64,000 nt of DNA from Escherichia phage WPEC3. The position numbers and the translations under genes were made by a program. Numbering within the stretch: the stretch's first letter is position 1; every line of letters starts with the position of its first letter. The stretch is taken from the sequence record PV611058. One strand, given 5' to 3'. Under the pieces are notes generated by a model. It saw nothing but the letters and a program-made list of their open reading frames with translations, made no database searches and was not told the DNA's origin. Positions 20,443 through 20,758 of the stretch are shown piece by piece.

Positions 20443-20612
20443 GTATATTTTCCTTTTGTTGGATAAAATCGTTTAGGTTTCTATTATAGCCAATCCGTGG
20501 GCAAAAGTAAAGGAACTGTGTTAAAAGAATTTTTAACTTATCAGTTCCTTTGTTACTTCATGAATCATCCGTGTATTTAAAAAGGCATTTCTCTTTGCCG
20601 TCTTGATGTGGT

Positions 20613-20640
20613 CATTATATCACATCGTTCAGGCTTGTCA
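20613..20640 (-). promoter_or_regulatory. sigma70-type consensus promoter (TTGACA-N16-TGaTATAAT), copy A
   Basis: On the - strand: -35 TTGACA at about 20640-20635 and extended -10 TGATATAAT ending about 20613, with 16 nt spacer; points toward the AAA+/VWA operon. Confidence 0.6.
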
Positions 20641-20705
20641 ACAACTTTTTTATTTCTTTTTCAATCTCACATCTTGTGATTTTGAAAACTTGCTTCGTGG
20701 TGGTC

Positions 20706-20733
20706 ATTATAACACATCATTCGGCGTTGTCAA
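20706..20733 (-). promoter_or_regulatory. sigma70-type consensus promoter (TTGACA-N16-TGtTATAAT), copy B
   Basis: Second copy about 93 bp upstream of copy A, inside a ~55 bp direct repeat; same orientation. Confidence 0.6.
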
Positions 20734-20758
20734 CATCTTTTTTTCTTTATTTTCGAAG

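Follow-up and report, generated by a model that had tools for sequence, protein, structure and literature searches.

Background

Promoters resembling those of the host sigma-70 class have been described in a few Rak2-like jumbo phages. RpoD-like promoters with UP-like elements were predicted in phage CBB (PMC5259590), and in PA5oct, a phage dependent on the host RNA polymerase, TTGAC/TATAATA promoters were placed near start sites mapped by RNA-seq (PMC7318152). The CBB study also reports, for CBB and GAP32, a "divergent RpoD-like" class of the form TGAAACG ... TGTGGTATAAT (its Table S6), with the TGAAAC form found mostly upstream of DNA-synthesis genes, and indicates that only 100 nt upstream of ORFs were searched (PMC5259590). 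The transcription signals of the Rak2/121Q jumbo phages are otherwise almost unstudied: in the literature searched, papers on the genus make no mention of promoters, those on RaK2, Sharanji, fEgEco12, phAPEC6, UE-S1, and G17 contain no promoter analysis, and an RNA-seq study of the Rak2 group was found only for PA5oct.

Two classical phage systems offer further comparisons. The early cluster A1-A2-A3 of T7 consists of tandem strong sigma-70 promoters ~100 bp apart, with an RNase III site before the first gene, and the pR'-tR' unit of lambda (6S RNA) yields a short RNA by default, with read-through feeding the operon. At the RNA level, CsrA/RsmA proteins recognize AUGGA/ANGGA sites in apical loops (PMC5207318).

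The promoter pair of the present study (P1 and P2) lies in a 64-kb window of Escherichia phage WPEC3, the window being the whole stretch of DNA analysed. It resembles the RpoD-like sets of CBB and PA5oct in phage group, in its TTGACA/TATAAT hexamers, in its A-rich upstream tract, and in reliance on the host core polymerase; however, the CBB and PA5oct promoters occur singly and cluster in the early or terminal-repeat region, whereas the pair is internal and tandem, with an extended -10 and a predicted terminator before its gene. The divergent class of CBB and GAP32 shares the geometry (hexamer, 12-13 nt, TGTGnTATAAT), but the pair has the complete sigma-70 TTGACA as its upstream hexamer. Tandem promoters facing the same genes and a structured RNA element before the first gene recall T7, although the T7 cluster is situated at the genome end and the pair is internal. 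A strong promoter followed within 60-190 nt by an intrinsic-terminator-like element ahead of genes recalls lambda pR'-tR'; unlike in lambda, no Q-like antiterminator, qut-type site, or alternative antiterminator structure was identified. Likeness to CsrA/RsmA targets lies in an unpaired ACACGGAUGA before the hairpin and, in relatives, a GGA-loop hairpin after it, but only one or two candidate sites occur here, whereas the usual targets carry at least two motifs per RNA. Precedents thus exist for strong sigma-70-like promoters in phages, for promoters in tandem, and for terminators in leaders; the pair itself, its copy-number variation, and the conserved promoter-terminator-GGA module were not found described in the literature searched. 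The analysis set out below suggests that P1 and P2 are probably genuine sigma-70-type promoters heading a promoter-leader-terminator module, in which P2 is a duplicate of P1 and most transcription would end as terminated RNA with some read-through.

Genomic context of the promoter pair

The source of the window is an Asteriusvirus-like (Rak2/121Q group) jumbo coliphage with E. coli as host, and its relatives are 350-386-kb myoviruses. Positions 19000-22000 shared 99.1-99.9% identity with nine jumbo coliphages (WPEC5, Ecwhy_1, fEgEco12, and others), ~85% with 121Q, PBECO4, and G17 (genus Asteriusvirus), and 60-80% with RaK2-like Klebsiella phages. For genome-wide counts, the whole genome was rebuilt from WPEC5 and the window, and the pair was found to be internal, ~243 kb into the 380-kb genome. 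The neighbouring features are as follows.

17629..19038, minus strand: gene for a DUF2201 putative metallopeptidase with a VWA-like domain, downstream of the ATPase gene
19093..19066, minus strand: terminator-like hairpin between the ATPase gene and the DUF2201/VWA-like gene
19114..20442, minus strand: AAA+ (MoxR-like) ATPase gene, the nearest one downstream of the module (assigned to PHROG "ATPase", with weak Pfam AAA matches)
20456-20449, minus strand: ribosome-binding site of the ATPase gene, AAAGGAAA, with the ATG at 20442
20759..21136, minus strand: conserved 125-aa gene, function unknown, that closes the virion-structural block and is syntenic in all relatives

P1 begins right behind the stop codon of the 125-aa gene, and the pair is intergenic, at the junction of the structural block with a block holding the thymidylate synthase and DprA-like genes. 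The 125-aa gene is labelled "transcriptional regulator HdfR" in fEgEco12; this label was rejected, as the product had no Pfam match and belongs to a PHROG of unknown function.

Sequence of the tandem promoters

The elements of the pair, all read on the minus strand, are listed below.

20736..20754, minus strand: A-rich UP-element-like tract upstream of P1, GAAAATAAAGAAAAAAAGA, within the 55-nt repeat
20706..20733, minus strand: P1, with the -35 TTGACA at 20733-20728, a 16-nt spacer, TG at 20714-20713, and the -10 TATAAT at 20711-20706
near 20699-20701, minus strand: predicted P1 start; TGT closes the 16-nt spacer
20658..20688, minus strand: inverted repeat with 14-nt arms (86% complementary) and a 3-nt loop, in the P1 transcript and overlapping the UP region of P2
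20644..20662, minus strand: A-rich UP-element-like tract upstream of P2, GAAAAAGAAATAAAAAAGT
20614..20641, minus strand: P2, with the -35 TTGACA at 20641-20636, a 16-nt spacer, TG at 20622-20621, and the -10 TATAAT at 20619-20614
near 20607-20609, minus strand: predicted P2 start; TGA closes the 16-nt spacer

The original prediction described a direct repeat of ~55 bp with ~80% identity, each copy carrying a perfect -35, a 16-nt spacer, and an extended -10, at ~165 and 260 nt upstream of an AAA+/VWA operon, and all of this was borne out. The repeat spans 55 nt (20608-20662 and 20700-20754) with 82% identity and a 92-bp spacing, and it was the only direct-repeat family found; Tandem Repeats Finder gave no report at the locus because there are just two diverged copies. 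When the 92-nt units were aligned, the likeness ran from the UP-like A-tract through the core to ~+10 (about ten transcribed bases) and then faded. Both promoters scored 12/12 plus TG in a consensus promoter scan, and their predicted starts lie ~257 nt (P1) and ~165 nt (P2) from the ATG at 20442. They have the full set of sigma-70 extended -10 features (both hexamers, a spacer within 17 +/- 1 bp, and TG at -15/-14), and they are intergenic, oriented toward the downstream gene, and conserved in their elements above the surroundings.

P1 and P2 were the only perfect TTGACA-N15-19-TATAAT sites on both strands of the 64-kb window. The exact 28-nt pattern occurred twice, against 0.00 occurrences in 100 dinucleotide-preserving shuffles, and with up to two mismatches allowed there were nine matches against 2.16 expected, all on the minus strand. 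The last 9 nt of the P1 A-tract, separated from the -35 by 2 nt, resemble the proximal UP subsite AAAAAARNR reportedly given in the UP-element consensus of Estrem et al. The predicted structure of the P1 transcript includes the inverted repeat at 20658..20688 as a hairpin. P1 and P2 are very likely a strong, portable E. coli promoter pair; a promoter matching all consensus elements may also escape slowly and yield less than expected.

Conservation and copy number among relatives

Within the genus, seven diverged Asteriusvirus genomes were aligned. The -35 TTGACA of P1 was invariant in all seven and in RaK2, and its -10 was TATAAT in six of the seven and TACAAT in the G17/121Q lineage. For P2, the -35 was TTGACA in six genomes and TTGACG in one, and the block CGATGTGATATAATG...ACATCAAGAC, in which CGATGTGATATAATG is the -10 block, was invariant within the genus. 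The spacer was 16 nt in both copies and in all TTGACA-bearing relatives, and the TG did not vary within the genus; across the seven genomes, the 5' half of the P1 spacer varied freely and the P2 spacer varied less. The A-tract upstream of P1 was kept in all Asteriusvirus relatives and in RaK2 with changes in length only, and indels between near-identical genomes were confined to A-tracts.

The number of promoter copies ranged from one in RaK2 through two in Asteriusvirus to three in SP27, where the additional copy repeats the P2 unit exactly over 94 bp. In RaK2 and Muenster (genus Alcyoneusvirus), P1 was kept as TTGACA-N16-TGATATAAT, and the P2 position held only a degenerate remnant. The comparison indicates that P1 is the ancestral copy and P2 a lineage-specific tandem duplicate of the ~92-bp P1 unit.

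The wider comparison covered the region upstream of the ATPase homologue in Hallingskeid, Munch, EJP2, Serratia phage BF, and Pectobacterium phage CBB, together with 18 IMG/VR loci (ATPase 54-93% identical). Every one of these relatives had a promoter-like site where the upstream gene ends, its extended -10 being TGTGATATAAT or TGTGGTATAAT, preceded by a varied upstream hexamer: GGGACA (Munch), GTGACA (EJP2), TTGAGA, or (G)TGAAAC (BF, CBB). The CBB site fits the divergent class exactly and lies 112-140 nt from the ORF, outside the 100 nt covered by the CBB study; it does not appear among the listed entries of Table S6. P1 is older than its TTGACA, with position homologues across several genera. 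EJP2 carries a P2-like unit placed after the terminator, and the promoter-before-terminator order therefore fails for some copies. Overall, the comparison supports P1 and P2 behaving like functional promoters.

A phage-wide promoter class and the phage sigma factor

The rebuilt genome contained 41 perfect TTGACA-N16-18-TATAAT sites, almost all on the coding strand, 26 of which represent 13 sites counted twice in a terminal repeat of ~21.6 kb. The terminal-repeat promoters share the signature ...AGTACTG-TATAAT-N4-5-ACATCAAG..., and the transcribed start of P2, ACATCAAGACGG, carries the ACATCAAG part of this early-promoter signature, with P1 showing a diverged form. A further tandem couple of perfect sites (~106,965 and 107,043 in the WPEC5 genome) was set aside, as the flanking RBS-ATG sequence suggests that the two sites encode the N-termini of a pair of small paralogous ORFs.

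In their spacer and extended -10 (GATGTGnTATAAT), P1 and P2 fall in another set, TGTGnTATAAT, which occurred 21 times in the rebuilt genome against ~2.7 expected, with 20 of the 21 on the coding strand and mostly 23-75 nt from the next ORF. The related pattern nnGACA-N13-TGnTATAAT was found at 22 sites, every one on the coding strand, with nn being GA (6), GG (6), TT (5), TA (2), AG (2), or TG (1). P1 and P2 match this pattern with TT first and are thus the TT extreme of a phage-specific class; they also belong to the broader Rak2-group class nnGACA/TGAAAC-N12-13-TGTGnTATAAT. Pfam regions 2 and 3, but no canonical region 4, were detected in the sigma factor that the phage itself encodes (homologue of WPEC5_CDS0184), an architecture that would fit promoters specified by their -10 and extended -10.

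Together, these findings lend some weight to a lesser possibility, namely that P1 and P2 are middle-class promoters used mainly by the phage sigma factor or a remodelled host polymerase, with TGTGnTATAAT plus nnGACA as the defining signal, the TT of TTGACA being incidental and the timing not early. The 22 coding-strand sites with so few TT, the position homologues GGGACA, GTGACA, and TGAAAC, and the phage sigma factor all fit this reading, as does the report, in the CBB study, that the TGAAAC form belongs to a class found mostly upstream of DNA-synthesis genes. It is countered by the strict retention of TTGACA in P1 (Asteriusvirus and RaK2) and in P2 of six of the seven genus members, which implies selection on TT as well, and by the UP-like A-tracts, which point to binding of the host alpha-subunit C-terminal domain. 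It is also compatible with the preferred reading of P1 and P2 as sigma-70-type promoters, and dual use is possible: because the full sigma-70 consensus is combined with the phage-wide TGTGnTATAAT/nnGACA signature, the pair could serve the host sigma-70 holoenzyme as infection begins and remain in use afterwards. The interpretation in the original prediction, an early pair served by unmodified host RNA polymerase, is supported only as far as the promoters look functional by conservation; their early, host-only use is unproven in view of the phage-wide class, the homologues without a sigma-70 -35, and the phage-encoded sigma factor.

A conserved hairpin in the leader

The leader between P2 and the ATPase gene contains the following elements.

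20565..20574, minus strand: ANGGA-type motif ACACGGAUGA upstream of hairpin T, unpaired in the MFE and centroid folds
20503..20551, minus strand: T, a hairpin with a U-rich tract; arms AAAGGAACUG (20551-20542) and CAGUUCCUUU (20518-20509), an inner 7-bp stem, then UUUACUUUU
20489..20502, minus strand: short palindrome or hairpin, GCCCACGGAUUGGC, with GGA at its centre, immediately 3' of the U-tract
20483..20511, minus strand: P3, TTTACT-N17-TATAAT (10/12), a putative promoter of lesser strength that overlaps both the U-tract and the GGA palindrome, ~35 nt before the ribosome-binding site

The predicted fold of the P2 transcript had a z of -3.7, and a hairpin with a U-tract was present at the T position in all distinct relatives examined. 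In an alignment of 19 distinct sequences, the T stem was 91% paired, as against 20-56% for slid registers, and its covariation score was reached by 0 of 500 shuffles. Three internal pairs changed only by double substitutions, from G-C to A-U in seven and two sequences and from C-G to A-U in three. In addition, T carries an ARNold terminator annotation in the GenBank record of G17, and a terminator scanner called T in BF, CBB, and L029. T thus looks like an intrinsic terminator or attenuator, and the covariation indicates a structure under selection. In the phage of the window, however, the hairpin has a large internal region, an A/U-rich base, and the interrupted U-tract UUUACUUUU, and here T may terminate only weakly or act chiefly to stabilise the RNA. 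With a covariance model of the leader module, this locus scored 71 bits and everything else at most 38 bits, indicating a single-copy module; the other matches were rejected as paralogous copies, being generic terminators. An Rfam scan of 20300-20900 at E values up to 10 returned only sub-threshold noise, with nothing near gathering scores.

Downstream of T, P3 was nearly invariant in Asteriusvirus, with its -10 reading TATCAT in RaK2 and TGGTATAAT in Hallingskeid, and no P3-like site was detected by the promoter scanner in BF, CBB, and L029. The conservation of P3 is inseparable from that of the overlapping U-tract and GGA palindrome. In the same three phages, the scanner found one promoter, then T, and no other promoter before the ATPase gene. 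The promoter-terminator-gene layout is therefore ancestral, and the terminator must be leaky or regulated.

These results call for a second correction of the original prediction. The orientation of the pair agrees with service to the AAA+/VWA operon, but with T between the pair and the ATPase gene, and P3 after T, the pair does not simply feed the operon. Nor is the "long leader" an empty stretch, as it holds a hairpin with a U-tract, a GGA-loop hairpin, and, in this clade, P3.

The same evidence makes it unlikely that P1 and P2 are just a strong early pair for unmodified host sigma-70 polymerase, with a passive leader in which the hairpin only stabilises or structures the mRNA. In favour of this simpler account are the perfect consensus with TG and A-tracts, the correct orientation, the intergenic position at the junction of the structural and thymidylate synthase-DprA blocks, and the E. 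coli host. Where relatives have no P3, the upstream promoter is also the sole one detected for the ATPase gene, which must then be reached by read-through. On the other side, the position homologues have no sigma-70 -35, a sigma factor is encoded by the phage itself, the other members of the promoter class lie 23-75 nt from their ORFs, the U-tract always follows the hairpin, two independent predictors call an intrinsic terminator, compensatory changes maintain the T stem, and a promoter-like site arose after T in two lineages (P3, and the P2-like unit in EJP2). A passive leader is possible if T is weak.

Under the preferred reading of a promoter-leader-terminator module, a promoter stands at the P1 position, immediately behind the closing gene of a virion-structural block, throughout the Rak2-like jumbo phages. 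P1 and P2 are predicted to fire strongly, with all four contact modules for the sigma-70 holoenzyme present. Their transcripts would first meet T, where most are expected to end as RNAs of ~190 and ~95 nt, and a fraction, constitutive or regulated, would read through into the ATPase/VWA genes. P3, located after T, may add basal, terminator-independent access in this clade, and the duplication would raise the dose of the P1 product. The short RNA could be functional (an sRNA or a CsrA ligand) or an attenuation by-product. The sequence features and the fact that they are non-random, the conservation, the history of duplication, the covariation of the hairpin, and the single-copy status were shown directly, whereas whether and when the promoters are active, how efficiently T terminates, and what the short RNA does are inferred.

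GGA motifs and other candidate leader functions

An A(C/U/A)GGA(U/A) motif was located 6-17 nt upstream of T in 17 of the 19 distinct relatives, and ANGGA motifs flank T in 17-18 of the 19. The GGA-loop hairpin after T was 85.5% paired versus 66% in shuffles (0 of 500 reaching it), with slid registers at 19-58%; the GGA is invariant, the loop keeps YGGAW (A(U/C)GGAU in relatives), and the stem covaries, being weak in the phage of the window and clearer in relatives. Genome-wide, GGA-loop hairpins were not enriched (83-85 versus ~104 in shuffles). On this basis, it is conceivable, though rather doubtful, that the unit of promoter, body (35-100 nt), terminator, and U-tail constitutes an sRNA gene or riboregulator of all Rak2-like jumbo phages, and not just the leader of the ATPase gene, binding the host global regulator CsrA via the ANGGA motifs that flank T and raised in dose in coliphages by the duplication (1, 2, or 3 copies).

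Several other functions were considered for the leader and rejected. An RNase III processing site, by analogy with T7, needs a duplex of ~20 bp, and T has only 8-11 bp in most relatives and always a U-tract. For a leader peptide, the mini-ORFs MIHEVTKELIS* and MK* are not conserved, with A4 having no ATG and RaK2 reading MNY*. Also, the 30-aa CDS annotated in WPEC5 (window 20707..20615) is almost certainly spurious because it starts inside the P1 -10 and stops inside the P2 -10.

Origins such as the T7 primary origin and T4 oriF and oriG use a promoter transcript for priming or R-loop formation. It is very improbable that the present locus is a replication-origin-type element of this kind, in which tandem promoters beside A/T-rich DNA would give a priming or R-loop transcript. 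The A+T content is ~66% in the promoter region versus 60% in the flanks, and the tandem promoters, A-tracts, and short terminated transcript bear a resemblance to T7 and T4 origins; however, cumulative GC skew tracks the coding strand and does not inflect near the pair, only one promoter is present in most relatives, and no iterons, DNA-unwinding element, or other origin-like feature was found. Finally, chance matches or an assembly artefact are effectively refuted: AT-rich genomes do give many weak look-alikes (42 scanner matches in the wider region versus 45 expected), but the exact pattern appears twice with none expected from shuffles, the region is identical in several independently sequenced phages, and conservation is specific to the functional elements.

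Implications

The perfect sigma-70 appearance of P1 and P2 illustrates that such a look can be the extreme of a phage-specific class, which calls for caution in reading timing from the consensus alone. The relatives provide a natural promoter copy-number series (1, 2, or 3) in near-isogenic contexts, and the conserved single-copy promoter-terminator leader is a good first target for RNA-end mapping in these jumbo phages. If the sRNA reading were true, CsrA would be titrated, or read-through into and translation of the MoxR-ATPase/VWA genes would be under CsrA control.

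Promoter architecture and terminator hairpins

In the WPEC5 terminal repeat (genome pieces L013, positions 1-21600, and L019), a perfect promoter was observed for each of dozens of small genes. These promoters share the architecture AAAAAGTA-TTGACA-AAGTATnnnAGTACTG-TATAAT-AGTTT-ACATCAAGGGGAG, a layout by which the start-region motif ACATCAAG runs directly into the Shine-Dalgarno sequence. In addition, a recurrent cassette on the minus strand at about 48,264-63,588 of WPEC5 (L013/L014) carries a terminator hairpin within a promoter, aaaaGGGTTGACTtcgGTCAGCCCtttttgcTATAAT, the 5' stem arm of which holds the -35 element. 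In the window, the following promoter and hairpin features were identified:

38834-38910, minus strand: near-consensus promoter TTGACT-N17-TATAAT with a terminator hairpin
19066-19098, minus strand: terminator-like hairpin of 12 bp, AAGGAGGATACCACATGGTATCCTTCTT, with TTATCTT after it, in the gap from the ATPase gene to the VWA gene
20747-20779: inverted repeat of 13 nt, 92% complementary, with a 7-nt loop, crossing the upstream gene's stop codon and overlapping the A-tract of P1

At 38834-38910, the second-best match to the covariance model (38 bits), the strong hairpin AAAGGGACAGAG...CTGTCCCTTTTCTTTT immediately adjoins the -10 element. The terminator-like hairpin at 19066-19098 separates the two genes of the ATPase/VWA "operon", which therefore may be punctuated. 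For the inverted repeat beside P1, pairing was apparently retained with other bases in the related jumbo phage G17, as judged by eye.

Comparison with relatives and doubtful annotations

In the related phage SP27 (LC494302, positions 1140-1330), the P2 unit was tandemly duplicated as an exact 94-bp copy, giving three consecutive promoters; this duplication could be either genuine or an assembly artefact. The window and WPEC5 were 99.9% identical around P1 and P2 despite a length difference further along: over the compared interval (about 26000-64000), their coordinate offset at window position ~63,950 differed from that at ~24,000 by about 950 bp, indicating that WPEC5 holds about 950 bp extra there.

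WPEC5_CDS0413, a 30-aa CDS annotated in WPEC5 at window positions 20615-20707 (minus strand), is almost certainly a spurious call, since its ATG is formed by the final bases of the P1 TATAAT together with a G, and the reading frame stops within the P2 TATAAT. Two further labels in relatives look wrong, namely "HNH endonuclease" (the phrog_1314 name) for the DUF2201 metallopeptidase/VWA-like protein (17629-19038, minus strand) and "transcriptional regulator HdfR", given in fEgEco12 to the upstream 125-aa protein (20759-21136, minus strand), which had no Pfam match and a PHROG of unknown function.

Other promoter motifs

The T4 late-promoter motif TATAAATA was absent from both strands of the whole 64-kb window, and genome-wide in WPEC5 (L013-L019) 11 copies were observed, where a third-order Markov model predicts about 46. 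Several remaining copies directly precede structural genes, among them head and baseplate genes, which suggests that the motif is counter-selected elsewhere. Moreover, the motif GGGACA-N13-TGATATAAT occurred three times in the window:

17554-17581, minus strand
36560-36587, minus strand
47178-47205, minus strand

Across the WPEC5 genome, all 22 nnGACA-N13-TGnTATAAT sites were on the coding strand. These sites look like a phage-specific promoter class, related to the TGAAACG class that has been published for phage CBB.
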